This document shows positions 1,057 to 64,000 of a stretch of DNA of 64,000 nucleotides, piece by piece. Position numbers and translations under genes: made by a program. The stretch lies in NCBI GenBank assembly GCA_018897195.1, contig JAHILH010000001.1, forward strand, positions 476,565 to 540,564. Reading direction: 5' to 3'. The notes beneath the pieces were generated by a model. It worked only from the letters and a program-made list of their open reading frames with translations, did not search any database and was not told the origin of the DNA. Source of the DNA: Patescibacteria group bacterium (GTDB lineage Bacteria > Patescibacteriota > Patescibacteriia > Patescibacteriales > UBA12075). Positions within the stretch are counted from its first letter, which is position 1. Each line of letters starts with the position of its first letter.

Positions 1057-1093
1057 CCCCCTCACCCCGACCCTCTCCCGCGGGGCGAGGGAG
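1057..1093 (+). repeat. Family-A GC-rich REP-like palindromic repeat, forward copy
   Basis: Sequence ccccctcaccccgaccctctcccgcggggcgagggag. The same unit recurs at 3604, 25219, 36571, 62426 and 63304, and in reverse at 62868. Its core is an imperfect hairpin, CCCTCTCCC-gcg-GGGCGAGGG. Confidence 0.9.
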
Positions 1094-1100
1094 TTTATAT

Positions 1101-1134
1101 TCCCTCTCCTTGCCAGGAGAGGGTTAGGGTGAGG
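1101..1134 (-). repeat. Family-A repeat, subfamily A2, inverted copy
   Basis: Sequence tccctctccttgccaggagagggttagggtgagg. It has a perfect 8-bp hairpin (CCCTCTCC/GGAGAGGG) followed by GGTNRGGGTGAGG. It sits 7 nt from the forward copy, facing it. Confidence 0.8.
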
Positions 1135-1146
1135 TAGTTTTTCTAA

Positions 1147-3300: not shown

Positions 3301-3345
3301 AGGGTTATTTTAACATTAATTAGTAAAAAGTAAAAGAATATATAT

Positions 3346-3468
3346 TGTCATTCTGGAGCGAAGCGATAGAATCTTCGACTACGTAAAAAACGAGTGTTAA
3401 TATTCGAATTTTAAATCTTAAACATCGGAAGATTCTATCGGTCGTCCCGACTCCCTCCAGAATGACAA
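3346..3468. repeat. Family-B MITE-like element with terminal inverted repeats
   Basis: The ends TTGTCATTCTGGAG...CTCCAGAATGACAA form terminal inverted repeats. The left arm, gtcattctggagcgaagcgatagaatcttcgactacgtaaaaaacg, recurs in inverted orientation with few mismatches at 56800-56845. Confidence 0.75.
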
Positions 3469-3525
3469 TCGATTAAATTTTATAATATCAGATGACTATT
3501 CACCTACACAAAAGACGGGTATTAA

Positions 3526-3560
3526 CTCCCTCTCCTTTGTAGGAGAGGGTCGGGGTGAGG
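3526..3560 (-). repeat. Family-A repeat, subfamily A2, inverted copy
   Basis: Sequence ctccctctcctttgtaggagagggtcggggtgagg. It has a perfect hairpin, CCCTCTCC-tttgta-GGAGAGGG. Confidence 0.85.
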
Positions 3561-3603
3561 TAGAGCGTGCGAAGAATATTATATAGGAAGTATTTTAACA
3601 ATG

Positions 3604-3641
3604 CTCCCTCACCCCGACCCTCTCCCGGCGGGGCGAGGGAG
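3604..3641 (+). repeat. Family-A repeat, forward copy
   Basis: Sequence ctccctcaccccgaccctctcccggcggggcgagggag. It lies 43 nt from the inverted copy at 3526-3560. Confidence 0.9.
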
Positions 3642-3686
3642 AATACGATGACACACTTCCTGCTATATAAATTCAAAGTCATATTT

Positions 3687-4991: not shown

Positions 4992-5035
4992 ATGTCTCCT
5001 TTTAAAGCAGTATATATAAATATTTATGTTTAATT

Positions 5036-5192
5036 TTCTAATTTTCAATTTTCAATTTTCGAAACAATTTTCAATGACACAATTTATTAATTTTCAAACA
5101 CGATAATCATTCTATTTATTGTTTGAAAATTGTTTCATTGAAAATTTAATCATTGTTTTGAAAATTGAAAATTGAAAATTCGAAAATTAATC
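5036..5192. repeat. Long imperfect palindrome with GAAAATT heptad repeats between lexA and dinB
   Basis: The left arm (aattttcaattttcaattttcgaaacaattttcaatgaca) and right arm (tgtttcattgaaaatt...ttgaaaattgaaaattgaaaattcgaaaatt) are near reverse complements. An inner 10-bp inverted repeat, TTTTCAAACA/TGTTTGAAAA, is at 5091-5100 and 5120-5129. Confidence 0.7.
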
Positions 5193-5751
5193 AATACTTC
5201 CGCACCACCGCCTTGACCACTGCCGAGATCTTTAATTCTTCTTTGGGATAAATCGGTTGAAAATCTTTATTTGCTGGTTCAAGGAAAATCACATTGCCTT
5301 TTTTCCGAAAATATTTAATCGTCCATTCGCCATCAACTTCGGCAATGACAATATCCCCGCTCCGTGGCGTGATATTTCGCTCGACAATCACCATGTCCCC
5401 CTCAACGATCCCCGCATCCTTCATCGAATCGCCGCGCACCTTGAGAATATAGGTCGCCTCACGATTGCCCACCAGATACTCATCGAAAGTAATCGTGTCC
5501 GCCAACTCCTCCTCGGCCGGCGACGGAAAGCCCGCCTCCACATAACCCAAAGTTCTAATCGCGCCATAAAGACTTCCTGGGCTCAAGCGCCCTTTACTAT
5601 CTTTACTCAAAAAACCCTCATCCACTAAGCGATTAACCAACTTAAAAACCGCGTTCTTGGACTTATAACCCAACAACGTCATGATCTCGCTATACACCGG
5701 CATCCGCCTATTTGTCTTATAAAATTTTTCAATTTTGTTTTTCACATCCAT
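5191..5751 (-). CDS. lexA: LexA repressor (wHTH plus S24 peptidase)
   Basis: Start set at the ATG at plus 5749-5751 (MDVKNKIEKFY...). An Ala-Gly cleavage-site context is present (YVEAGFPSPA), along with catalytic Ser (RGDSM) and Lys (IKYFRKKG) contexts. Confidence 0.9.
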   Translation of the reverse strand: MDVKNKIEKFYKTNRRMPVYSEIMTLLGYKSKNAVFKLVNRLVDEGFLSKDSKGRLSPGSLYGAIRTLGYVEAGFPSPAEEELADTITFDEYLVGNREATYILKVRGDSMKDAGIVEGDMVIVERNITPRSGDIVIAEVDGEWTIKYFRKKGNVIFLEPANKDFQPIYPKEELKISAVVKAVVRKY

Positions 5752-22265: not shown

Positions 22266-24098
22266 ATGGAGAAATTTATTTTACATACCAATTTTAAACC
22301 AACTGGCGACCAGCCTAAGGCAATTAAAGACCTGACCACTGGCTTAAAAAATAAACTCAAAGAACAGACCTTATTAGGTGTCACTGGCAGTGGCAAGACT
22401 TTTACCATGGCCAATATTATTAACAACGTCCAAAGGCCGACTCTGATCATCTCCCACAATAAAACCCTCGCTGCTCAACTCTACGGCGAATTTAAACAAT
22501 TTTTTCCCAACAATGCTGTCCATTATTTTGTATCCTATTACGACTACTACCAACCAGAGGCCTATCTTCCCCAAACAGACACCTACATTGAAAAGGAGGC
22601 GACCATTAACGAAGAAATTGACCGCTTGCGCCACTCAGCCACGCAATCACTACTTAATCGTGATGACGTGATTATCATCGCCTCCGTATCTTGTATTTAC
22701 GGACTTGGCTCAAAGGAAGACTACCAATCACTTTGTGAAAAATTCCAACAAGGACAAAAAATCAAACGCAACGATATCCTGCGTAAATTGATCAAGATTC
22801 AATATGAACGCAATGACCTTACTTTTGCTCGCGGACAATTTCGCGTCAAGGGCGAAACGATTTTTATCCATCTCGCCACTGGTGAAGCGATTGTGCGCAT
22901 TTCCATGGCTGGTGATTGGATTGACGAAATTGCCCTATTTACCATCAAGCCGGATGTTAACAAGATTATTCAGGCTAATGATTTAAAAATACGCGATGGA
23001 AAAATCTTAAACGAAATCTCCATCCTTCCTGCTAAGCATTTCATGACTCCCGAAGAACGCATAAAAAAAGCCGTCAGTAATATTCGCGCTGAATTAGTTA
23101 AGCGATTAAAAATATTATACAAAGAAGAAAAAATAGTGGAAGCACAACGCCTAGAACGGAAAACCAATTATGATTTGGAAATGATTGAAGAGGTTGGCTA
23201 TTGCAATGGTATTGAAAATTATTCCCGCCACCTTACTGACCGTCCAGATGGCTCATCACCGGAAACTTTGATCGATTTTTTTCCCAAAGATTTTTTAATC
23301 ATGGTTGACGAATCCCATGTCACCATTCCTCAGATCCGCGGCATGCACGCAGGTGACCAATCCCGTAAACAAACTCTCATCGACTTTGGTTTTCGTCTCC
23401 CCTCAGCCAAAGATAATCGCCCACTTAATTTTGAAGAATTTAATGCCAAGGTCAATCAGATTATTTATGTTAGTGCTACCCCATCAGAATATGAGATCCA
23501 TCGCTCTGCCCAAATTGCCAAGCAAATCATCCGCCCTACCGGATTGCTCGACCCAGGCGTAGAAGTGCGACCAAATGAAGGCCAGATTGATGACCTGATT
23601 AAAGAGGTTCGAGCCGCGACGGCCAAGGGCCAAAGAACTCTCATCACCACTTTGACCAAAAAAATGTCAGAAGCTCTGACTGAACATTTGGCCGAGCAAG
23701 GTATCAAAGTGCAATATCTGCACAGCGATGTCGAGACTATGGAGCGCGTGGAAATCCTCCGTGATCTGCGCCAAGGTCGCTATGATGTTCTCGTTGGTAT
23801 TAATTTATTACGCGAAGGTCTCGATCTCCCAGAAGTTTCCCTCGTTATTATTATTGACGCCGACATCGGCGGCTTTCTCCGCCACGCCACTGCACTCATG
23901 CAAACCATGGGGCGCGCCGCGCGCCACTCCGAAGGTCGCGTTATTATGTATGCAGACAAAATGACCCCAGCAATGAAATATGCTATCACCGAAACCAAAC
24001 GTCGTCGCAAAATTCAAGAAGCCTATAATTTGAAGAATAATATTACGCCGACGACAACCAAGGCTGGTCTTCACGAGAGTATTACGCAGTATAATTAA
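22266..24098 (+). CDS. uvrB: excinuclease ABC subunit B
   Basis: 610 aa. Motifs: PTGDQPKAI, Walker [15 protein letters not shown] box [17 protein letters not shown]. The protein ends about 25 aa after ITP, so I cannot see a C-terminal UVR domain. Confidence 0.93.
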
Positions 24099-24110
24099 AA
24101 AAGAAGACTA

Positions 24111-24897
24111 TTGTTGGCTCCATAGTCCCCCGCGTGGGCTGTGGAGCCTTAGTGCAATTAAATTATTTTCCGTTTTATTTAATTGTAAATTTAACTTGTG
24201 TTATAACAAAAACCTTTAACTATCTAATTTAATCAAACTATTATCATTTAATACTCGATTCCGCGCCGAAGAATACAACCAATCTTCAGACATACTCACA
24301 AAGCCTCTCTTGACGGGATTATTATGTATATAATTCAATTTTTGATTATAAAATATTTCCGTAGTCATCACTTCTGGATAATTTTCTCTTTGCCATATTT
24401 GATTTTCATAACCCTCTTTTTTCCTAAAACTATTATCTAACAAATTTTTTATATATTTTCTATTATCAGTTTTTAATAATTTCAAAATCTCCCTAGTTGT
24501 GTGTTTTTTAAAATCACTAACTATCTGTGACAATTTAACCCCGTCCATTGCTCGACATATCATATGGATATGGTTTGTCATTATTACATACTCAAACAAC
24601 AATAGTCCTTTATTTTTTTGACAATATTTTAAACTATCAATAATTACATCAAAATATTCTGTCTTTGTAAATATATCTATCCACTCAATTGTAGTGATAG
24701 TTATAAAATGTGTATCGTCTTCATTTTCTATATTAATTCTAAGGGTTGGCATAATATTATTTAATAATTACAATATTGTTGGCTCCATGCAACCGCGTCC
24801 CGGTGGAGCCGAACTGCAATTACTTAAATTACAATGATGAAATATTTAATAATTGCACTAAGGCTCCACAGCCCTAACGGGACTATGGAGCCAACAG
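24111..24897. mobile_element. RAYT (IS200-like Y1 transposase) unit flanked by REP hairpins
   Basis: REP copies sit at 24111-24159 and 24777-24822 (same orientation) and at 24851-24897 (inverted; its reverse complement matches 24111-24159). Each folds as GGCTCCAYAG..CC/GG..CTRTGGAGCC. The unit fills the uvrB/uvrC convergent gap. Confidence 0.8.
24216..24752 (-). CDS. REP-associated tyrosine transposase (IS200-like Y1_Tnp family)
   Basis: 178 aa. HUH motif within MTNHIHMICR. Catalytic Tyr context is LNYIHNNPVKRG. No tnpB-like second gene is present. Confidence 0.85.
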   Translation of the reverse strand: MPTLRINIENEDDTHFITITTIEWIDIFTKTEYFDVIIDSLKYCQKNKGLLLFEYVIMTNHIHMICRAMDGVKLSQIVSDFKKHTTREILKLLKTDNRKYIKNLLDNSFRKKEGYENQIWQRENYPEVMTTEIFYNQKLNYIHNNPVKRGFVSMSEDWLYSSARNRVLNDNSLIKLDS

Positions 24898-24901
24898 CTG
24901 A

Positions 24902-26275
24902 TTATCTTTTTAAAAATCTCTTTGCTCTTATTCCTCGGTGATATTCAATCGCAAACCGATGCGCCTCATCGCGGACACGTTTGATGAGGTGCAAGGCTGG
25001 AGACGCCAAAGGTAATTCTAGTGGTTTTTTTTCACCAGGGAAAAATATTTTGTCTGGTGCATTCGCCCCTCGCAAACCATCACCCTTTGAAATCGCAATC
25101 ACAGGAATATCTAATTTATGTTTTTTCAAAATCCGCACTAATACACCCAACTGCGCTTTGCCACCATCCACGATAAGAAGGTCAGGATTCTCCCAAATGT
25201 CCTTATCTTTAATAATTTTCCCCTCACCCCGACCCTCTCCCGCCGGGGCGAGGGAGCTATCTATTTGATATTCGTGATCAAAATGTTTCATGCGTCTCTC
25301 CAAGACTTCTTCCAACATCCAGACATCGCCCTCCAAATCCAAATCTTTTATTTTAAATTTTCGATATTCATTCTTGTCCGGCTCACCATCTTTGAAAACA
25401 ACCATTGACCCCACTGCCTCTTTGCCTTGTAGATTAGAAATATCATAACCTTCAATTCGATTAGGAACCCGTGACAACCCCAAAGTCTTGGCCAATTCCA
25501 CCACATCGCCGGCATACTTATCCGCTAAGCTCAGAACTTTAGAATGATCCAAAACATTATTAATATTTTTTAGTTCGTATTTCAATTTACCTAATTCATT
25601 TTGAACTTGTTCATCTGTGTTATCGCCTTTTTTTAATTCTTTCTCGAGTTTCGTAATTCGTAATTCGTAATTTTTTATCAAGACAGACCTACCTCCATCC
25701 AAAAATAAAACAATCTGCTTTATAGTCTTGGCATATTCCTGTTTCGAAACCAAGCTCTCACAAACACCTTGGCATTTTCCAAGACGATAATACAAACAAG
25801 CGCGCTTAGGCATATTTTTACATGAACGATATGGCCAAATTTTTCTCAAGGCTTTCAAGGTTTCGCGTACTGCTTCGGTGCTCACAAAAGGCCCAAAATA
25901 TTTTCCCTTCTTATCCAAATTCCGTGTCATAAAAATCCGCGGATATTCATCCTCGGTCGAAACTTCGATATAAATATAACGTTTGTCGTCGCGCATGACC
26001 ACATTATACTCCGGTTGAAATTTCTTGATTAAATTCGCCTCCAGTAACAAAGCCTCAATCTCGCTCTCAACCTCAATCCATTCAATACTCGCCACCTTCT
26101 TTAACATCGAATACTTCGCCGGCGTATGGCTCGTCGCCTCGCGCCAATACGAAAGCACTCGACTGCGCAGGTCAACTGCTTTGCCGATATAAATAATCTT
26201 CCCGCTCGCATCTTTGAACTGATACGAACCGGGAGTTTTGGGAATATCTAGATTTTTAACTTGTTCCAAATTCAT
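24902..26275 (-). CDS. uvrC: excinuclease ABC subunit C (short form)
   Basis: 457 aa. GIY-YIG N-terminus (GSYQFKDASGKIIYIGKAVDLRSRV), Cys cluster, and an endonuclease V-like region (LLIVDGGKAQL, DEAHRFAI). I see no C-terminal HhH domain. It contains a family-A repeat in frame. Confidence 0.9.
   Translation of the reverse strand: MNLEQVKNLDIPKTPGSYQFKDASGKIIYIGKAVDLRSRVLSYWREATSHTPAKYSMLKKVASIEWIEVESEIEALLLEANLIKKFQPEYNVVMRDDKRYIYIEVSTEDEYPRIFMTRNLDKKGKYFGPFVSTEAVRETLKALRKIWPYRSCKNMPKRACLYYRLGKCQGVCESLVSKQEYAKTIKQIVLFLDGGRSVLIKNYELRITKLEKELKKGDNTDEQVQNELGKLKYELKNINNVLDHSKVLSLADKYAGDVVELAKTLGLSRVPNRIEGYDISNLQGKEAVGSMVVFKDGEPDKNEYRKFKIKDLDLEGDVWMLEEVLERRMKHFDHEYQIDSSLAPAGEGRGEGKIIKDKDIWENPDLLIVDGGKAQLGVLVRILKKHKLDIPVIAISKGDGLRGANAPDKIFFPGEKKPLELPLASPALHLIKRVRDEAHRFAIEYHRGIRAKRFLKR
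25219..25256 (+). repeat. Family-A repeat inside the uvrC coding sequence
   Basis: Sequence tcccctcaccccgaccctctcccgccggggcgagggag. On the uvrC strand it reads in frame as SLAPAGEGRGEGK. Confidence 0.9.
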
Positions 26276-36570: not shown

Positions 36571-36609
36571 CTGCCCCTCACCCCGACCCTCTCCCGCGGG
36601 GCGAGGGAG
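36571..36609 (+). repeat. Family-A repeat, forward copy (intergenic)
   Basis: Sequence ctgcccctcaccccgaccctctcccgcggggcgagggag. It shares the extended 5' flank agactgcccc with the copy at 63304. Confidence 0.9.
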
Positions 36610-36618
36610 AATTAAAAA

Positions 36619-41514: not shown

Positions 41515-42126
41515 TTATTTATACTTATCTTCTATTGCCGCCAAGAGTTTAGCAGTTGCCGCTGGATCAACAATAAATAAAAATTTTGTTCCAACATTTA
41601 ACTCCTTAATATTAAATTTAACTTCAAAAATTAACACTACGCCAGAGACTTTGCCAATTTCAACAGCCACTGAATTCATAATCGAATCTGCTGTGTCGAC
41701 AACCACATCCGCAACGGAATGCAAAAGGCTCATGTTTAAAAACTTAGAAAAGGCCGACAATGAGGCTCCAGCCATAATATTACCAACCTCTTTTACAGCT
41801 GATACCTCTAACTCTTTTTGGCTGCCAGCACAGTCGACATCATCCATTAAAATAGTAGCTATTTTTGACTCATCGCCGTCGGAGAACATAAAAAACATTA
41901 CTCCACTTGCATCGCCATAAATCTTTAAAATAGCCGTTGTTACTTCCTCGTCTTTATTTTCAATAAATTTACTTAAATTTTGAATTTCATCAACATACGC
42001 CCTTGGCACTGATAAATCTACTTTTTTGTGAATCATTTGTGACAAAGCCGTTGAGGCATGGCTGGCACCGATGTTCATAATTTCCTTCAATTGATCGATT
42101 TGGAACTCATCTATTCTTTGTTGCAT
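41515..42126 (-). CDS. cheC: CheC-like CheY-P phosphatase, paralogue 1
   Basis: 203 aa. The first site fits D-x3-E-x2-N-x22-P exactly (DQLKEIMN...DLSVP). The second site is S-x3-E-x2-N and lacks the terminal Pro. Confidence 0.8.
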   Translation of the reverse strand: MQQRIDEFQIDQLKEIMNIGASHASTALSQMIHKKVDLSVPRAYVDEIQNLSKFIENKDEEVTTAILKIYGDASGVMFFMFSDGDESKIATILMDDVDCAGSQKELEVSAVKEVGNIMAGASLSAFSKFLNMSLLHSVADVVVDTADSIMNSVAVEIGKVSGVVLIFEVKFNIKELNVGTKFLFIVDPAATAKLLAAIEDKYK

Positions 42127-42172
42127 ATAATTATCTTGGTTAGCATGTAAAAAAATAATTTTTTACACAATT

Positions 42173-42784
42173 TTAATATTTTAATTTTAAAGCATCTAAC
42201 AATGTCTTTGTTGCCTTCGCATCAATAAAAAACATAAAATTTGTATCTATGTCCTGCTCTCCACTGATACTAAAATCAATTTGAAACATCAATGCCACGC
42301 CCTTCTCACCCACAACCTCGATACCGACCTTTTTAACTACATCAATTAAACTTCCACAAAAAACCTTAGAAAAAGAATGAAGCAAATTTAAATCTAAAAA
42401 TTTGGAAAAGGCGGTCAGTGAAGCGCCAACTAAAACATTACCGAGCTCCTCTACCACCGACGATTCAAGCTCTTTTTTTATTTTCTTATCTTTTATGTAC
42501 TTCAACAATAAATCAATTAATTTTTGCTCATTTTTATGCGAAAACAAAAAATACATCAAGCCATTAATGTCACCAAAGACTTTTATCAAAACCGCTCTTA
42601 CCTGATCATTGGGATTGGTAAAATATTTCTCAATATTATCAATAGTATCAATGTGCGCATATGGAATTGTCAAATCAACTGGCTGTTCAACCATTTGTGA
42701 CAAGGCCGTTGAAGCATGGCTAGCCCCAATATTCATAATTTCTTTCAGTTGATCGATCTGGAATTCACTTATTTCTAATTTCAT
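42173..42784 (-). CDS. cheC: CheC-like CheY-P phosphatase, paralogue 2
   Basis: 203 aa. DQLKEIMNIGASHASTALSQMVEQPVDLTIP fits the motif. The C-terminus FMFFIDAKATKTLLDALKLKY is shared with paralogue 3. Confidence 0.8.
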   Translation of the reverse strand: MKLEISEFQIDQLKEIMNIGASHASTALSQMVEQPVDLTIPYAHIDTIDNIEKYFTNPNDQVRAVLIKVFGDINGLMYFLFSHKNEQKLIDLLLKYIKDKKIKKELESSVVEELGNVLVGASLTAFSKFLDLNLLHSFSKVFCGSLIDVVKKVGIEVVGEKGVALMFQIDFSISGEQDIDTNFMFFIDAKATKTLLDALKLKY

Positions 42785-42830
42785 AAAATTGTCTTTGATT
42801 AATGTGCTATAAATAATTATTCACACAACT

Positions 42831-43442
42831 CTAATATTTTAATTTTAAAGCATCTAATAATGTTTTTGTAGCCTTATCGTCAATAAAAAACATAAAATTA
42901 GTATCCACCTTGTCATCGCCAATCGTAAAATCAATTTGAAACATCAAAACTGTTCCATCCACGCCTACAGCTCCAGCACTGACTCTTTCCACAACCTCCC
43001 TTAGGGTTCCGTCCAACACTTCAGAGGCTGAATGGGGCAAGTTTAAGTTCATAAATTTGGAAAAAGCCGCCAATGACGCCCCTGACAAAATATTACCAAG
43101 CTCTTCAACAACCGTCGCATTTAGCTCATCTTTAATACTTTTGTCTTTTATGCCAAGCAACAATAAATCGGTTAATTTTTTCTTATTTTTATACGAAAAT
43201 AAAAAATACATTGCCCCCTTAATATCACCGGAGACTTTTACCAGAGCCGCACTAATTGTTTCATCACATTGACTATAATATTTATTAACGTTGTTAACTG
43301 TATCCATATGAACAAAGGGTATTGACAATCCCACCGGCTGATTAACCAACCGCGAAAGCGCCGTTGAGGCGTGGCTGGCACCAATATTCATAATCTCCAT
43401 GAGTTGATCAATTTGAATTTCATCCAATTTGGTTTGTAGCAT
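42831..43442 (-). CDS. cheC: CheC-like CheY-P phosphatase, paralogue 3
   Basis: 203 aa. DQLMEIMNIGASHASTALSRLVNQPVGLSIP fits the motif. The 3' end and downstream spacer are near-identical to those of paralogue 2. Confidence 0.8.
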   Translation of the reverse strand: MLQTKLDEIQIDQLMEIMNIGASHASTALSRLVNQPVGLSIPFVHMDTVNNVNKYYSQCDETISAALVKVSGDIKGAMYFLFSYKNKKKLTDLLLLGIKDKSIKDELNATVVEELGNILSGASLAAFSKFMNLNLPHSASEVLDGTLREVVERVSAGAVGVDGTVLMFQIDFTIGDDKVDTNFMFFIDDKATKTLLDALKLKY

Positions 43443-43446
43443 ATTT

Positions 43447-45309
43447 TTATTTCTTAAAATTTGTTAATAATAAATTCACAATATCTAAAATTAAAATTGT
43501 CCGACCATCACCCAGGATTGTTGAACCAGAAAAACCCCTGACATTTCGCAAAATTGGTGACAATGGCTTCACTGTCACTTCCTGCTCACCCACTAACTTG
43601 TCTATCACTAAGCCAATTAATTCATCGCCTTTCTTAACAATCACTACCACCTTGTCAACATTTTTAAGCACTTCATCGTCAGCTTTCTCACTCTTTTCAA
43701 TGACATGATTATTGTCAACAACAATTATATTGCCAAATTTCTCCCGCAAATCAATCAAGGGCACTTTTATGCCATCAACAATGGCAACATTATTGTCAGC
43801 CATTCTTTTTATATTTTCAGCATTAACTAAAACAGATCTATCAATATTGGAAAAAGGGATAGCATAAATCAATTCACCAACCTCCACCAATAAAGAATTA
43901 ATGATTGCCAAAGTCAAAGGCAGTTCTAAAGTGAACCGCGCACCTGGATTTAGATTTTCAACAATAACTCGACCACCAGATGATTCCGCGAATGATTTAA
44001 CTACATTCAAGCCAACACCACGACCGGAAATTTCGGTAACCACATCGTTGGTAGAAAGTTTTGGATGGAATAACAAATTCATAACTTCCTGATTGGTCAT
44101 AAGATCAACCTCCTTGGCGCTAGCAATGCCTCTTTTAACAGCGGCCTGCTTAACTTTTTCTATATCAATTGACTGATCATTATTCTCCACGATTATTAAA
44201 GCATTTTCACGGTCACGTTTTGCTTCCAATCTTACGTAACCTTCTGTTTTAATGCCGTGGTCAATAGCGTTTCTAAGTAGATGTACTAATGGCTCTCCCA
44301 ACTTGTCAACAATTGATCGATCTAATTCTAAATCAGAGCCATGAACAAAAAATTCCACTTTCTTCTCCTGCCTCTTTGATAAGTCCCTAACCATACGTGG
44401 GAAACGAGCAAAAACCTGCTCCACCGGCACCAATCGTGCTTGCATCACTTCATACTGCAGACTTTGAATTAATAAGCCGACGTGGTCCGTAACTTCTTGC
44501 AACTCTTTATTTTTTAAACCCATGCGCTGTAAGGCCATTTTGTCTATTACCAACTCCTCCACCAAATCCATCAAAGCATCTAATCTTTTTATCGGCACTT
44601 TAATATATTCAATTTTTTTAACCGAATCATCAATCTCGTCCCTGCCAGTCCCAGTCTTTGTTTTTATCGTTTTTTGGTTATCAATATCCTTATCTTCGAT
44701 TTTTGGTTCTTCGATTTTTGGTTCTTCGATTTTTGGTTCTTCGATTTTTGGTTCTTCGATTTTTGGTTCTTCGATTTTTGGTTCTTCGATTTTGATCTCA
44801 ACTGACCGTGGCACTTCCAACCCTGCTTTTATTTGATTTTCCGCTTTTGCATCCTCCGCTTTTGCATCCTCCGCCTTTTTTCTATTTGACTTGCCGACCC
44901 CTTCAGTATTAACGCCAGTTGCTTTTTTTAACTCATCAGCCAAACCCTTTAAGACCAATTCCTTGTCAGTCTGCTTAATCGAATCCAAGGATTCCTCTAG
45001 CTTATCAACTGCCTGAAAGGCATAATCAATCATTTCTGGAGTCAGCTCCACGATGTTGTTTCGCGCGCCATCATAAACATCTTCCATGACATGAGCCAAA
45101 TAAGCCATATCAATAAAACTCATCGTTGCTGAAGAGCCTTTAATGGTATGCGAGGCTCGCATCAAGACATCTAAAACATCTTTTACAGAATCATTAGATT
45201 CGCCATTATTAATTGCCTTTTCCAAAACAAGCAAATTTTCATTTAAAATTTGCAGCTGATCCTCACTTTCGGAAACGTATAAATCTTTAAATTTTGAGAT
45301 GTCGGTCAT
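43447..45309 (-). CDS. cheA: chemotaxis histidine kinase CheA
   Basis: 620 aa. Hpt motif is ASHTIKGSSATM. A dimerisation region is present. HATPase motifs are HLLRNAIDHG and GRGVGLNVV. A CheW-like C-terminal domain follows. The linker carries (EEPKI)x6. Confidence 0.92.
   Translation of the reverse strand: MTDISKFKDLYVSESEDQLQILNENLLVLEKAINNGESNDSVKDVLDVLMRASHTIKGSSATMSFIDMAYLAHVMEDVYDGARNNIVELTPEMIDYAFQAVDKLEESLDSIKQTDKELVLKGLADELKKATGVNTEGVGKSNRKKAEDAKAEDAKAENQIKAGLEVPRSVEIKIEEPKIEEPKIEEPKIEEPKIEEPKIEEPKIEDKDIDNQKTIKTKTGTGRDEIDDSVKKIEYIKVPIKRLDALMDLVEELVIDKMALQRMGLKNKELQEVTDHVGLLIQSLQYEVMQARLVPVEQVFARFPRMVRDLSKRQEKKVEFFVHGSDLELDRSIVDKLGEPLVHLLRNAIDHGIKTEGYVRLEAKRDRENALIIVENNDQSIDIEKVKQAAVKRGIASAKEVDLMTNQEVMNLLFHPKLSTNDVVTEISGRGVGLNVVKSFAESSGGRVIVENLNPGARFTLELPLTLAIINSLLVEVGELIYAIPFSNIDRSVLVNAENIKRMADNNVAIVDGIKVPLIDLREKFGNIIVVDNNHVIEKSEKADDEVLKNVDKVVVIVKKGDELIGLVIDKLVGEQEVTVKPLSPILRNVRGFSGSTILGDGRTILILDIVNLLLTNFKK
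44694..44790. repeat. perfect 15-bp tandem repeat (6 units plus a partial) inside cheA
   Basis: cttcgatttttggtt is repeated head to tail and encodes (EEPKI)n on the minus strand. A second 15-bp doublet, ttttgcatcctccgc x2, is at about 44841-44870 and encodes KAEDA x2. Confidence 0.9.
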
Positions 45310-56745: not shown

Positions 56746-56844
56746 TTGTCATTCTGGAACGAAACGAAGTGTAGTGATAGAATCTTCCACTTTGTACGTT
56801 TTTTACGTAGTCGAAGATCCTATCGCTCCGCTCCAGGATGACAG
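56746..56844. repeat. Family-B MITE-like element, second copy
   Basis: The ends are cttgtcattctggaac...ctccaggatgacag. The right arm is the reverse complement of 3347-3392 with a few mismatches. Confidence 0.75.
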
Positions 56845-56851
56845 AAAAGAT

Positions 56852-57556
56852 TTATTTCTTTCCTAGATAAAACCTTCTCTCGCTCTCGCTGAATTTTTCA
56901 ATCGCATACCGCAACATCGTCCGCGGCATTGTCTGGTAATATTTCTTCAAAAAAACCTCCTCCACCATTTGATCGCGCTTCCCCACCTCTCGCAACATCC
57001 AACCCACCGCTTTTTGAATCAAGTCGTGTTTATCATTAACCAATATTTCCGCTATCTTAAGTATATCATAAAAATCATTATTACGTATAAAAGCAAAAGT
57101 TGACACCACGGCAATCCGTTTTTGCCATAAATCTGTTGATTTTGCCAAGTCATACAAGACGCCACGGTCTTTATCGGCTAAATATTGCCCCACAATATGA
57201 TGGCAGGTTACATCTACCAAATCCCAATTATTTATCCATTTCGTGTTACCCAAATAAGCCTTAAATATTTGCTCTTTTTCATTATCTTTCCCGCGCTTGA
57301 ATTTCTCCACCAAAATCAATAAGGCCACCATCCGCTGTTCATGAATCTGGCTTTGCAAAAAATCCAAAACATCTACTAAGGGTAAATCGCGATATTTTTT
57401 CACGATAATTCTCTGCACCGGCACCTTAATACCGAGAAATATATCTCCCTCGCCATATTCACCCGGACTGGTTTTGAAAAATCGCTGCAACAGTGCAGCC
57501 TGATGAGAACTAGCCAGAGCGTGCAAATCTTTTTTCAAATTTTCAATCTTAGACAT
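56852..57556 (-). CDS. DNA alkylation repair protein (AlkD-like HEAT repeat family)
   Basis: 234 aa. FFKTSPGEYGEGDIFLGIKVPVQR, WINNWDLVD and VGWMLREVGK are typical of the family. Confidence 0.8.
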   Translation of the reverse strand: MSKIENLKKDLHALASSHQAALLQRFFKTSPGEYGEGDIFLGIKVPVQRIIVKKYRDLPLVDVLDFLQSQIHEQRMVALLILVEKFKRGKDNEKEQIFKAYLGNTKWINNWDLVDVTCHHIVGQYLADKDRGVLYDLAKSTDLWQKRIAVVSTFAFIRNNDFYDILKIAEILVNDKHDLIQKAVGWMLREVGKRDQMVEEVFLKKYYQTMPRTMLRYAIEKFSESERRFYLGKK

Positions 57557-61361: not shown

Positions 61362-62858
61362 CTAGAATTTCAGATAAGCCCAGGGTAGCTTTTCGAGAGT
61401 TTGGGCAATAAAAATTATATAAGCCAAGGAAATTTTGGCGGGAAAAAATAAGACCAGAGCAAAACTTGGGAAAACAAAACTGGCAATCAGACCAGCAATT
61501 AGCGACGCTAACAAGAACGGCAGCGTCCAGAGAATTAATAAATTTGCCAAGGGGGCGATGAGAGAAAATTGCTTGAAACTGAAAAATAAGATTGGGAAAG
61601 TGAGAATCTGAATTAGCAATGAAATCGAAATAATCTCGAAGAAGATTTTGTAAAATTGCCTATTTAAAAATGGATATTTATCAATTAACTTTGCGTAAAG
61701 TTTAAGAAATTGTGGATGCAAAAAAATAATCGCAAAAACCGCCAAGAACGACAGCTGGAAGCCAGCGTCATAACGTAGCAACATGGGATTGAATAATAGC
61801 ATAACCGCTGCGGCAAAAACTAGAGAAATGTCCATACGATTGAGTCGACCTAAATGTATGCCAAGCAAAACAAGCATACCCATCACCAATGACCGCACCG
61901 CTGCCGCGGTCGCGCCAATCATAATAATATACACCGTCAAGGTTATTGAAATCACATAAAAAAGTTGCTGCCGCCAAAATCCAAGCGCCAAGAAAACGAA
62001 GGCCAAGATGACAATCAGAATCGCGACGTGCGACCCGGAAATCGAGATCACGTGGCTCAAACCCGTGCGTGCAAAACTATTATTCAAATTCTCATCCATC
62101 GCTCCCATATCCCCCAAAATCATCGCCCGCCCAAAACTCGCTTCCGGCTCGCTCATGCCTTGGTTAATTTTGGTGCGCAGGATATTTTTGAATTTATAGA
62201 TATTGGAATAAATTAAATCGACCACGTCCAGCTCCGTATCCAGCTTTTTGATATTTTTGGGATAATAACAAACGCTATAAATATCATAGCGCGCCAGATA
62301 TTTATCATACGCAAAACCTTCAAATTCTTCTGGTGCTTTTAATTTACAGGTCAATGAGACGACATCGCCGTAGGCAAATTCGGGATAGAGATTTGTTGTC
62401 ACTAAAACCTTACCTTCAACCACTTCCCCCTCACCCCGACCCTCTCCCGCGGGGCGAGGGAGTTTAAATTCCTGCTTTGCGATTTGTAGATTATTAAGAG
62501 TTATTTTCTGATTACTCTTTTTTAAACTCGGCTCTTCACTCACCTTGCCAATCAATTGCACTTCTTGATTATTATAATACCAAATCTTATTAGCGTCCGT
62601 TTTTGGAATTGTCAAAGAGAAACGCCAGATGCCAAGCAAAGCAAAAAAGCTAAGTAAAAAAAACATATTTATTAGGATATGTTTCTTATTGGCTGTATTC
62701 CAGACTAAAAAAGTCAGAACTGTGAAAATGATACTGGCAGCAAACCACTGGATGTCATTTTTAAGGAAGCTAATAGGCAAAAAAGATGCGATGGTAATGC
62801 CGGTTATAAAGGCGAGACAGGAATAGAAGAATAGTTTTGATTTGGAAAAAGGAAGCAT
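61362..62858 (-). CDS. comEC: DNA internalisation competence protein ComEC (OB/DUF4131 plus competence domain; no metallo-beta-lactamase domain seen)
   Basis: Start moved to the ATG at plus 62856-62858 (MLPFSKSKLFFYS). The track's N-terminal extension reads through a family-A repeat and overlaps the DUF559 gene. The protein is multi-TM. FARTGLSHVISISGSHVAIL is typical of ComEC. It contains a family-A repeat in frame. Confidence 0.85.
   Translation of the reverse strand: MLPFSKSKLFFYSCLAFITGITIASFLPISFLKNDIQWFAASIIFTVLTFLVWNTANKKHILINMFFLLSFFALLGIWRFSLTIPKTDANKIWYYNNQEVQLIGKVSEEPSLKKSNQKITLNNLQIAKQEFKLPRPAGEGRGEGEVVEGKVLVTTNLYPEFAYGDVVSLTCKLKAPEEFEGFAYDKYLARYDIYSVCYYPKNIKKLDTELDVVDLIYSNIYKFKNILRTKINQGMSEPEASFGRAMILGDMGAMDENLNNSFARTGLSHVISISGSHVAILIVILAFVFLALGFWRQQLFYVISITLTVYIIMIGATAAAVRSLVMGMLVLLGIHLGRLNRMDISLVFAAAVMLLFNPMLLRYDAGFQLSFLAVFAIIFLHPQFLKLYAKLIDKYPFLNRQFYKIFFEIISISLLIQILTFPILFFSFKQFSLIAPLANLLILWTLPFLLASLIAGLIASFVFPSFALVLFFPAKISLAYIIFIAQTLEKLPWAYLKF
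62426..62462 (+). repeat. Family-A repeat inside the comEC coding sequence
   Basis: Sequence ccccctcaccccgaccctctcccgcggggcgagggag. On the comEC strand it reads in frame as LPRPAGEGRGEGE. Confidence 0.9.
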
Positions 62859-62867
62859 GCTAATATA

Positions 62868-62903
62868 TTCCCTCGCCCCGCGGGAGAGGGCCAGGGTGAG
62901 GGG
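62868..62903 (-). repeat. Family-A repeat, inverted copy
   Basis: Sequence ttccctcgccccgcgggagagggccagggtgagggg. It lies 5 nt downstream of the DUF559 stop codon. Confidence 0.85.
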
Positions 62904-62908
62904 TCGGT

Positions 62909-63289
62909 TTATAAATGAAGAATGTTTACCCGCTCTCGACATGTCGCCACAATATCCTCCAATACTAATATTAAATTTTCTTTTACGTCTGAATTGTTAT
63001 ACCTCTTTACTAAAAAACCCTGCTCTTCTAAAAATTTTTGTCGCTTAACGTCATATTGAATTTCCTTGTCAGTGCTATGCGTAGCGCCATCAAGTTCAAC
63101 AACTAACTTAGCCTCAAAACAACAAAAATCAACTATATATTTATCAATACCGAATTGTTTTTTAAATTTAAAATCCCCGAGCTGACTATCTCTGACTCTT
63201 CCCCATAAAATTCGCTCACAAGTTATGGGCTGTTTTCTTAAAACTTTACGGATATTTTTTTGTTGGGGTTGGTTAAATAATTTTGTCAT
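62909..63289 (-). CDS. DUF559 (Vsr-like / restriction endonuclease-fold) domain protein
   Basis: 126 aa. Motifs: ERILWGRVRDSQLGDFKFKKQFGIDKYIVDFCCFEAKLVVELDGATH...DVKRQKFLEEQGFLVKRY. Confidence 0.8.
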   Translation of the reverse strand: MTKLFNQPQQKNIRKVLRKQPITCERILWGRVRDSQLGDFKFKKQFGIDKYIVDFCCFEAKLVVELDGATHSTDKEIQYDVKRQKFLEEQGFLVKRYNNSDVKENLILVLEDIVATCRERVNILHL

Positions 63290-63303
63290 TTTTTTCTAAG
63301 ACT

Positions 63304-63340
63304 GCCCCTCACCCCAACCCTCTCCCGCGGGGCGAGGGAG
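63304..63340 (+). repeat. Family-A repeat, forward copy
   Basis: Sequence gcccctcaccccaaccctctcccgcggggcgagggag. It lies 14 nt upstream of the DUF559 start codon. Confidence 0.9.
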
Positions 63341-63366
63341 TATTATAGCCATCTTCGATTTAATTT

Positions 63367-64000
63367 TTACACTTCCCTAATCCACCGCAAATACTCTTCC
63401 ATAAATCTCTCCAAATCGCCATTCAAAACCCCATCAATATCCTGCGTCTCGCATTGGGTGCGGTGATCCTTGACCATTTTATACGGCTGCATGACGTACG
63501 AGCGAATCTGTTTGCCCCACTCTGCCTTTTGCGCTTCACCCTTGATTTTGCGCTCTTCTTTTTCGCGCTCTTCCTCTTGGAGTTTAAACAATTTTGACTT
63601 CAAAATCTTCAAAGCTGATTCCTTGTTTTGGTGTTGTGATTTTTCGTTTTGGCAGGTCACAACAATACCGGACGCCAAATGCTTGATGCGCACCGCTGAA
63701 TCTGTTGTGTTCACACTCTGCCCGCCTGGCCCTGATGAGCGAAAAACATCAATGCGAATATCACTATCGGCAATCTCAATATCCACCGCCTCGGGCAATT
63801 CCGGAATTACCTCCACAAGCGCAAAAGAAGTGTGACGCATCGCCTCCGAGTCAAAGGGCGAAATCCTAACCAGGCGATGAACACCAGATTCGCTTTTAAA
63901 ATAGCCGTAAGCCCAACGACCATAGATATGATAAGTCGCGCTCTTAATTCCCGCTTCAGCGCCGACAGTGCGATCAATTAGATTCACTTTCCACTTACGC
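63367..64000 (-). CDS. prfB: peptide chain release factor 2 (N-terminal part outside the window)
   Basis: The reading frame stays open to the window edge; the track's M at 63987 is a GTG inside the ORF. Motifs: GIKSATYHIYG, HRLVRISPFDS (SPF), SSGPGGQSVNTTDSAVRIKH (GGQ). Confidence 0.92.
   Translation of the reverse strand, partial: RKWKVNLIDRTVGAEAGIKSATYHIYGRWAYGYFKSESGVHRLVRISPFDSEAMRHTSFALVEVIPELPEAVDIEIADSDIRIDVFRSSGPGGQSVNTTDSAVRIKHLASGIVVTCQNEKSQHQNKESALKILKSKLFKLQEEEREKEERKIKGEAQKAEWGKQIRSYVMQPYKMVKDHRTQCETQDIDGVLNGDLERFMEEYLRWIREV

Follow-up and report, generated by a model that had tools for sequence, protein, structure and literature searches.

DUF559 nuclease genes are associated with the BoxC/PIT/TMECO triplex motif in a Patescibacteria genome and across bacterial phyla

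Introduction

The repeat that is now called TMECO was earlier named BoxC or the PIT element (Bergler 1992; Hoyne & Maher 2000, 2002) and was first described, as BoxC, in a paper on the envM (=fabI) gene of Escherichia coli. The E. coli sequence forms a triplex in vitro, as seen by circular dichroism and nuclear magnetic resonance (Holder et al. 2015; PMC4666352); this triplex is stable and blocks polymerase in vitro, and TMECO DNA is a marker of unstable loci. The same study counted 23 copies in strain MG1655 and 3610 copies in 262 proteobacterial genomes and found variability to be raised around them; it found no flanking-gene pattern, transposase or integrase, and the mechanism was given as unclear (PMC4666352). 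Here we describe a 64-kb stretch of a Patescibacteria genome (contig JAHILH010000001.1), in which a gene for a DUF559 nuclease stands between inverted copies of a repeat whose sequence identifies it as this motif, and we report that DUF559 genes and the motif are associated in many other bacteria. The whole 64-kb stretch that was analyzed is called the window throughout.

A gene-repeat system much like this one is that of the REP (repetitive extragenic palindrome) and REPIN repeats with the RAYT (REP-associated tyrosine transposase) genes, where an HUH/Y1 transposase is partnered with a short structured repeat. With this system in mind, an original prediction made from the letters of the window proposed that the DUF559 nuclease may be the cognate factor of the repeat, which was called family A, in an analogous but undescribed pairing. 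The co-occurrence reported below speaks for a cognate factor, and the mobilizing, nicking or homing step that the proposal also included is one that we infer.

Results

A DUF559 gene between inverted triplex motifs

The DUF559 gene (62909..63289, minus strand) encodes 126 aa and lies between prfB (RF-1 and PCRF domains) and comEC (Competence and DUF4131 domains), with all three genes on the same strand. Upstream of it is a triplex motif (TM) at 63304..63341 on the minus strand, recognized by its sequence, family membership and fit to the TMECO pattern, which on the coding strand of the gene consists of a hairpin, CCCTCGCCCC-GCG-GGAGAGGG, the linker TTG and a G-rich third strand, GGGGTGAGGGG, followed by 14 nt and then the ATG. 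The downstream TM (62868..62903, plus strand; sequence and family membership) has the opposite orientation; its C-rich tail starts 5 nt past the DUF559 stop codon and its hairpin ends 5 nt from the probable comEC start (ATG at 62858). Inverted-repeat analysis and alignment extend the whole cassette to 62847..63361 (no strand assigned) and show that it has terminal inverted repeats, the arms of which (62847-62915 and 63293-63361) are 69 nt long and 77% complementary; an AT-rich stretch of about 10 nt (GCTAWWATAYT) outside each flanking TM also pairs. When we re-checked the sequence, the positions that had been given for the gene, its flanking copies and the other pairs of copies in the window all held. 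A promoter and terminator scan of the cassette returned three promoter-like sites and one terminator-like site, no more than in shuffled sequences; on the strand of the gene, nothing ahead of it within the cassette is an obvious promoter.

The G-rich strand of each copy is made up of a C-rich arm, a short loop, a G-rich arm, a 3-nt linker and a second G-rich arm, and the window copies match the published TMECO pattern, CCCTCNCCC N3-6 GGGNGAGGG N3 GGGNGAGGG, exactly (one window copy, as its reverse complement, is CCCTCGCCC-CGC-GGGAGAGGG-TCG-GGGTGAGGG). The G variant (CCCTCGCCCC) is predominant both in E. coli and in the window. Judged by sequence, family A is the known BoxC/PIT/TMECO intrastrand-triplex motif and not a new repeat.

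Among the repeats that flank DUF559 genes, the third block is a mirror and not a direct repeat of the purine arm: for 85 non-symmetric arms, the mirror relation fitted better in 55 and the direct relation in 12, with 18 ties (p=1e-7). The mirror relation is kept even within one cassette that has different arms on its two sides, and it is kept in Bacteroidota variants that have an extra hairpin in the linker. Such a mirrored tail is what a purine-motif DNA triplex, with G·G:C and T·A:T triads, would be expected to have, and it argues that it is probably the fold, rather than a particular sequence, that is conserved. The arms themselves vary by lineage (CCCTCTCC/GGAGAGGG, CCCCTCC/GGAGGGG, CCTCCCC/GGGGAGG, TCCCCC/GGGGGA and others). 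In the G variant, Watson-Crick folding also gives an alternative hairpin, formed by the C arm and the third strand, that has a central G·T mismatch.

Two other readings of the repeat were set aside. One is a G-quadruplex; many variants have GG runs only, and the conserved parts are the complementary C arm and the mirrored third strand. The other is an RNA structure; purine-motif triplexes are reported not to form in RNA (PMC4666352), and no Rfam family, intron families included, matched 62300-63500 at E<=1. We also observed that in ten loci, mostly of Bacteroidota with one Saccharibacteria locus and one unclassified metagenome-assembled genome, an extra short hairpin replaces the linker between the purine arm and the third strand (for example GGAGGGG-T-GCCC-AAC-GGGC-GGGGCGG), with the mirrored third strand retained.

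The product of the gene belongs to the YcjD family of nucleases with a Vsr/EDxHD-like fold. It matches Pfam DUF559 (PF04480) with E=2.8e-32 and 111.2 bits, where the curated cutoff is 20.6 bits. Its score of 78.6 bits with the NCBIfam YcjD equivalog model (PRK09767) is under the 218-bit equivalog cutoff, so it is a member of the family and not an orthologue of E. coli YcjD. The AlphaFold model is confident (pLDDT 89.7) and has the restriction-endonuclease-like fold of its best Foldseek match, the uncharacterized Neisseria DUF559 protein 3HRL (TM-score 0.91, root-mean-square deviation 2.1 Å), to which the protein is also similar in sequence (E=1.9e-13). The next match is the catalytic domain of the homing endonuclease I-Bth0305I (PDB 3R3P; TM-score 0.81), and Vsr is a more distant structural match than this. 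Going by the model, then, the nearest functionally characterized fold match would be I-Bth0305I. Among 29 homologues of the window protein there is no variation at D54, E65, D67 and D80, and H71 is nearly invariant (at least 90%); the ratio of nonsynonymous to synonymous substitution (dN/dS) relative to the genes of relatives is 0.07-0.24. Selection on the protein is purifying, and its predicted catalytic residues are retained. It is a single-domain protein encoded by a free-standing, intergenic open reading frame (ORF), and the 64-kb window has no other DUF559 remnants. Membership in a recognized defense system was considered and rejected, as PADLOC gave only a weak DpdF match (E=5e-4).

DUF559 genes and the motif across genomes

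Our forward sample consisted of 80 DUF559 loci from GTDB species representatives, retrieved by a peptide pattern without use of the repeat, and it covers Acinetobacter, other Gammaproteobacteria, Alphaproteobacteria, Chloroflexota, Bacteroidota, Patescibacteria, Nitrospirota and others, about ten phyla in all. With a detector that uses architecture only (a C-rich hairpin and then a G-rich tail, in the correct orientation and at most 150 nt from the gene), the motif was found upstream in 51 of the 80 loci, downstream in 48 and on both sides in 35; the background of the detector is 0.10 matches/kb, or about 0.01 expected per side per locus. Nearly all 80 loci, when inspected by eye, have the same layout on the coding strand: hairpin, G-rich tail, 0-30 nt, ATG, the gene, stop codon, C-rich tail, hairpin. 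A bracket inverted-repeat score of at least 12 was reached by 51% of DUF559 loci and by 0.6% of 2528 control positions. Across about ten phyla, the bracket keeps its geometry and the repeat changes its sequence.

The window's own version of the repeat gives the same picture. Its 18-mer, CTCACCCCGACCCTCTCC, allowed three mismatches or fewer, reaches a density within 200 nt of DUF559 genes that is 74 times that of the other 1.17 Mb of the same loci. The excess is 230-fold in Acinetobacter, where there are 24 matches near the gene and 2 in 221 kb elsewhere, and 31-fold in the remaining loci.

The reverse sample was chosen only by exact match to TMECO and comprised 1.85 Mb of DNA, 739 kb of it from metagenomes and 1.11 Mb from viral contigs. 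The metagenome part (120 loci, 144 motifs) held four DUF559 genes, all of which abut a motif, and the viral-contig part (140 motifs) held two, both of which abut a motif, which makes six of six. About 3-5% of the motifs in these scans adjoin a DUF559 gene, as would be the case if there were about one gene for every few dozen motifs; in the window the ratio is one gene to nine motifs. The expectation that DUF559 genes and flanking family-A repeats would co-occur across genomes is thus strongly borne out in both directions, and we regard a DUF559-TM partnership as well supported.

Behavior of the cassette and turnover of the motif

In one Bacteroidales genome, two DUF559 loci (L044 and L057) share only a 565-bp segment, which is 91.7% identical and corresponds to TM-gene-TM, and the junctions of the shared segment lie in hairpin loops. 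The repeat-gene-repeat arrangement can be duplicated as a unit. A separate observation on this genome concerns the 72 nt that adjoin the L057 cassette on its left: they occur a second time, with 95% identity (7593-7673 of L044 and 9815-9895 of L057), and this second copy stops in a half hairpin whose break is in the loop.

The window also holds a cassette without an ORF, the "empty bracket" (3506..3673, no strand assigned), in which a left TM of the perfect hairpin type (3526-3563) and a right TM of the mismatch type (3604-3641) are separated by a spacer of 40 nt. It had been proposed to be an empty version of the DUF559 cassette, and the two are indeed related: both arms match the flanks of a full DUF559 cassette at another locus (L207; 84.8% over 92 nt and 86.5% over 74 nt, non-TM spacer included), the 360-nt ORF of that locus is absent, and the neighboring genes are unrelated, so that the site is non-orthologous. 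The L207 DUF559 protein is 70% identical to the window protein. Two origins fit the empty bracket: it may derive from a cassette and be without the ORF, or it may be a site of a second cassette lineage that is not occupied. As single-stranded DNA, 3506-3673 folds into one long hairpin (z = -7.0, with a folding tool that uses Watson-Crick pairs only).

The locus between prfB and comEC has an orthologue (L409), in which the DUF559 gene lies directly upstream of comEC, in the same place and orientation, and encodes a protein 79% identical to that of the window. The comEC gene of L409 does not have the 45-nt in-frame TM of the window comEC, and this, with the near identity of that TM to a copy elsewhere in the window (below), indicates a recent gain in the lineage of the window. 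Close relatives differ by motif copies that were gained or lost, and such copies may even lie within a reading frame. The flanking TMs, in contrast, are about 94% conserved between the two loci (34 of 36 positions of the downstream TM) though the synonymous distance (dS) is about 1.9, that is, synonymous sites are saturated, which implies that the repeats are constrained, or continually converted, in place. Other close DUF559 homologues sit in unrelated neighborhoods. None of L409, the E. coli sapF-fabI interval and the Enterobacter locus described below supplied an orthologous site that is empty of the whole cassette. Taken together, the system looks mostly sedentary with occasional movement, much like RAYTs.

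The motif and ycjD in E. coli and Enterobacter

In K-12 the neighbor of fabI is ycjD, the E. coli DUF559 gene, and the BoxC copy of the envM (=fabI) paper, the first to be described, is the copy beside ycjD. This adjacency appears, without comment, in Table S2 of Holder et al. (PMC4666352). The stop codon of K-12 ycjD lies in the loop of a degenerate TM, and a canonical TM follows about 170 nt downstream; between these two downstream TMs there is a duplicate of about 55 nt of the ycjD 3' end together with a decayed motif (L081, NC_000913.3 1351040-1351900; locus coordinates 5200-5420). The duplicate looks like a remnant of a second cassette or of a conversion event.

The ycjD gene is present in 3378 of 5426 complete E. 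coli genomes and absent from 38%; where it is absent, the sapF-fabI interval holds eefRABCD. For the strains with published TMECO counts, we take the phylogroups to be those named in what follows. By the counts in Table S7 of Holder et al. (PMC4666352), strains of A/B1/C, where ycjD is present, carry 13-30 copies; where ycjD is absent, there are 10-11 copies in O157:H7 and O55:H7 (E), 13 in strain 042 (D), 6-7 in F strains and 1-2 in B2 strains. Our own BLAST counts of TMECO in E. coli show the same bimodality. According to published work, which agrees with this, ycjD occurs in phylogroups A, B1 and C and also in ST69 and ST182 (PMC12817139). The last two acquired the gene independently.

Enterobacter asburiae is rich in TMECO (143 copies). 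Its YcjD homologue lies at hemW-yggN and not at sapF-fabI, with the same layout as in E. coli of a stop codon in the loop of a TM. This locus presumably differs from that of E. coli by the additional genes yggM and ansB, and the cassette segment itself has no E. coli match. The best 120 YcjD homologues include TMECO-rich Enterobacter species and no Salmonella protein, a contrast that is suggestive only as a sign of partnership.

Other motif copies and features of the window

The 18-mer occurs nine times in the window, at the same tolerance as above, where 0.04 occurrences are expected from shuffles; the G+C content of the window is 38%. Besides the flanks of the gene and the empty bracket, which is the reverse-then-forward pair of the original prediction, there is a facing doublet at 1057..1137 (no strand assigned) that is also as it had been described. 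It is composed of C-tail-hairpin, 8 nt and hairpin-G-tail, is heterotypic (mismatch and perfect type), sits directly downstream of recQ and folds into one long hairpin (z = -5.9, Watson-Crick folding). Pairing of type A with type B TMs, as in this doublet, was described for BoxC of E. coli in the envM paper as well.

Two of the nine copies lie in frame inside genes, by sequence and ORF, so the published description of the motif as always intergenic does not extend to this window. The copy inside uvrC (25221..25257, minus strand) encodes SLAPAGEGRGEG and falls in a loop insertion of about 29 residues relative to Thermotoga maritima UvrC (2NRT). The copy inside comEC (62428..62463, minus strand) encodes LPRPAGEGRGEG and shares 98% identity with the copy at 1055-1103 along 49 nt; the uvrC and comEC copies both encode ...PAGEGRGEG.... 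A solo intergenic copy, assigned by sequence and family membership, lies upstream of ruvX (36575..36610, minus strand). In a scan for target-site duplications, TTCC was found to border the two 98%-identical copies and not the others. Six of the nine copies are beside or inside genes of DNA repair or DNA uptake (recQ, a dinB-like polymerase gene, uvrC, ruvX and comEC). Genes of this kind are numerous in the window, and the proximity may be coincidence. The in-frame copies, the mirror-image tail and the identity with BoxC/PIT/TMECO had no place in the original prediction.

Between uvrB and uvrC there is a RAYT-type gene (24216-24752; Y1_Tnp, E=1.7e-7) within nested inverted hairpin repeats, GGCTCCATAG.../GGCTGTGGAGCC (24095-24913). 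As had been noted before, its hairpin repeat (GGCTCCAYAG...) differs from family A; since this RAYT has its own repeats, the genome carries a classical REP-RAYT pair alongside the DUF559-TM pair. Further repeats of the window include three tandem paralogous ORFs of 203 aa at 41515-43442 (period 655-658 nt, 70-88% DNA identity between copies), a 15-nt tandem repeat of about nine units, TTTTTGGTTCTTCGA, at 44657-44793 inside a 620-aa ORF (43447-45309), a long AT-rich inverted repeat at 5027-5193 (74-nt arms, 80% complementary, 19-nt spacer) that overlaps the start of the dinB-like ORF, and a 61-nt inverted repeat pair at 3332-3392 and 56797-56857 that is 85% complementary, 53 kb apart and not a tRNA.

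Discussion

Of the explanations considered for the bracket of inverted motifs around DUF559 genes, the best supported is that gene and repeat are partners in the manner of RAYTs and REPINs: the nuclease would act on the motif and the repair system of the host would make the copies, so that the motifs are converted and homogenized in a homing-like manner; we consider the chances of this reading to be about even. It takes the anatomy and the associations as they were found, and from these we infer that DUF559 recognizes and cleaves the motif. What is recognized would more likely be a folded hairpin or triplex, or the palindromic doublet, than a fixed sequence. The nuclease would nick or cut at the motif, and recombinational repair by the host from another copy would homogenize the motifs and would occasionally copy motifs and occasionally the gene. 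Spread would then be homing-like and would not involve strand transfer catalyzed by a transposase. Nuclease activity of this sort would also account for the published instability of motif-bearing loci in E. coli. In sum, cleavage followed by repair copying would account for (i) the bracket; (ii) the ORF-less derivative; (iii) the duplication of the unit; (iv) the junctions in hairpin loops; (v) the turnover of motifs and (vi) the instability of TM loci. A wider form of the idea, which we hold to be possible though somewhat short of an even chance, is that short DUF559/YcjD proteins are structure-specific nucleases with BoxC/TMECO as their natural substrate, and that the two form an ancient, cross-phylum and largely vertical pair, which would be a second counterpart of REPIN-RAYT with a different mechanism. 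Cleavage and repair would in this view maintain and homogenize the repeats, would occasionally multiply them and occasionally the gene, and would cause the instability of BoxC loci.

Several points weigh against a nuclease that acts on the motif. Binding and cleavage of the motif are predicted activities of DUF559; a 126-aa nuclease has no separate DNA-binding or strand-transfer module; and the TM copies of the window have no consistent target-site duplication. In E. coli, 6-13 motifs are still present in phylogroups E, D and F, which lack ycjD, and this persistence argues against strict dependence on the nuclease. Family A in genomes that lack DUF559 partly contradicts the original prediction; yet these numbers are under the 13-30 found with ycjD, and B2 strains have 1-2. 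The contrast is, moreover, confounded by phylogeny and amounts effectively to one or two independent events. Most E. coli motifs are at orthologous loci (62 loci across 56 strains; PMC4666352), so activity in this species would be low or absent, and ycjD is fixed at one locus and not visibly mobile. In at least 12 Acinetobacter species the DUF559 gene is single-copy and syntenic, flanked by facing TM doublets of about 115 nt. On viral contigs, where we looked at 68 DUF559 genes, the motif was upstream of 18 and downstream of 16, and the lower frequency of the bracket there means that the link to the motif belongs to a subset of the family; in general, about 20-35% of DUF559 genes have no detectable motif on a given side. 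Finally, co-evolution of protein and repeat was not seen across phyla (protein distance 0.588 with the same repeat core and 0.595 with a different core; permutation p=0.09), and a sequence-specific form of it would seem to be unsupported.

An alternative, unlikely in our view yet worth serious thought, is that DUF559 is a host nuclease of structure processing or repair that removes or nicks TM hairpins and triplexes, that the adjacent motifs serve operator-like autoregulation, and that the motifs spread by other means (slippage, recombination or another enzyme). A host role would suit a triplex that is stable in vitro, blocks polymerase and marks unstable loci (PMC4666352), as well as a gene that is single-copy and syntenic in the Acinetobacter species and within E. 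coli phylogroups, the purifying selection on the protein, the kinship with Vsr relatives that are repair enzymes, and the near restriction of Acinetobacter motifs to the surroundings of the gene (24 near and 2 in 221 kb). It leaves unexplained the sharp borders of the repeat-gene-repeat duplication, the ORF-less cassette and the close homologues in unrelated contexts, and a housekeeping role fits poorly with a gene that 38% of E. coli genomes lack. It is also conceivable, if rather improbable, that DUF559 is passive cargo of motifs that are mobile or recombinogenic alone or through some other factor, or that the motifs insert preferentially beside the gene. The abundance of motifs in some E. 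coli lineages without the gene and the failure to detect protein-repeat covariation would agree with a hitch-hiker, as would the finding that pairs of motifs in TM-rich DNA show no strong preference for one relative orientation (248 pairs as a bracket, 256 facing and 525 direct, numbers of little information because the detector is too permissive in GC-rich loci). With a stricter pattern, the only gene-sized brackets in the same DNA are two DUF559 cases, a tiny number. A passenger would not be expected to keep its catalytic residues under purifying selection, nor to be the same protein family in the same orientation and with the same tight spacing in about ten phyla with many repeat sequences, and no other gene family was seen in the bracket position.

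Much less probable is that the inverted repeats make an invertible cassette, switched on or off relative to transcription from outside, or that they act only on the mRNA, by pairing its 5' and 3' parts and affecting its stability. In a published search for programmed inversions, DUF559 was 14-fold enriched among inverted-repeat-associated genes, the predicted inversion targets (PMC9881135), an enrichment that is also an independent hint in favor of the partnership. In the window the gene points the same way as prfB and comEC and its cassette has no promoter-like site above shuffled expectation. Against inversion are the lack of an invertase gene nearby and the single orientation that L409 and all the syntenic Acinetobacter loci share, and neither form of the proposal explains the dispersed copies or the mirrored third strand, a signature of DNA triplexes and not of RNA. 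Chance, for its part, can be regarded as excluded: nine copies of an abundant intergenic repeat in 64 kb would make some adjacency to a short gene unsurprising in one window, but the enrichment is 30- to 230-fold over 80 independent loci, the orientation is fixed and the reverse test gave six of six.

The repeat and the protein family are each known, and their pairing appears to be unreported. We found no paper in the open-access literature that links DUF559 or ycjD to BoxC/PIT/TMECO, and a report elsewhere is possible; the original prediction was right to call the pairing undescribed in this sense, and the term does not apply to the repeat. For a motif known since 1992 that forms triplexes and is found at unstable loci, the link offers DUF559 as the first candidate protein partner, and for DUF559 (COG2852), a family very widespread in bacteria and uncharacterized, E. 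coli YcjD included, it offers a candidate partner in turn. Both are open to study in E. coli K-12 with standard tools. Should the nuclease prove to act on the motif, this would be the second known system made up of a single-copy nuclease gene and a population of short structured repeats, and one of the rare instances in which a bacterial protein is linked to DNA that forms triplexes. For annotation, it is of use to know that TMs can sit in frame inside essential repair and competence genes of the reduced genomes of the candidate phyla radiation (CPR).

With regard to known systems, the empty bracket resembles miniature inverted-repeat transposable elements (MITEs) and Rickettsia palindromic elements, ORF-less derivatives of which keep the ends of a longer element; the DUF559 cassette differs from these in having no transposase and no consistent target-site duplication. 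Vsr shares the superfamily and fold of DUF559 with a weaker structural match and low sequence similarity, and DUF559 is without the Dcm-type methylase context of Vsr. G·T mismatches are the substrate class of Vsr, and it is speculation that the mismatch in the alternative hairpin of the G variant has any relevance to DUF559. The likeness in fold to I-Bth0305I is closer, and the acidic and histidine residues E65, D67, H71 and D80 of the window protein, which are conserved among its homologues, are candidates for the catalytic set of the EDxHD enzymes; I-Bth0305I acts as a homodimer on a pseudopalindromic site, which would suit an inverted pair of motifs (PMC3239194). It differs from the small, free-standing window protein by its extra N-terminal DNA-binding domains and its residence in a group I intron. 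Homing endonucleases also differ in that a genome usually has one DUF559 copy despite many potential sites, so homing, if there is any, would be inefficient.

The window repeat itself resembles published BoxC/PIT/TMECO in its pattern, its multiple copies and its occurrence as singlets and inverted heterotypic doublets. The published copies are from Proteobacteria and always intergenic, whereas those described here are from a Parcubacteria (CPR) genome of 38% G+C and are in two cases inside genes; and the published work found no common flanking gene or mobility function and does not mention a DUF559 link, though ycjD is listed in its Table S2 (PMC4666352). Compared with REP/REPIN-RAYT systems, the protein is a PD-(D/E)XK Vsr-like nuclease (PF04480) and not an HUH/Y1 transposase (PF01797), the TM carries a mirrored third strand with triplex potential where RAYT repeats have a GTAG-tagged hairpin, and the action of the protein on the repeat is here a putative one. 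The organization of the two is nevertheless much alike: in both, a usually single-copy gene lies between inverted copies of a repeat that is otherwise dispersed as singlets and hairpin-forming doublets, the gene is often vertical and syntenic (for DUF559, in Acinetobacter and E. coli), and the repeats persist for a time without the gene.

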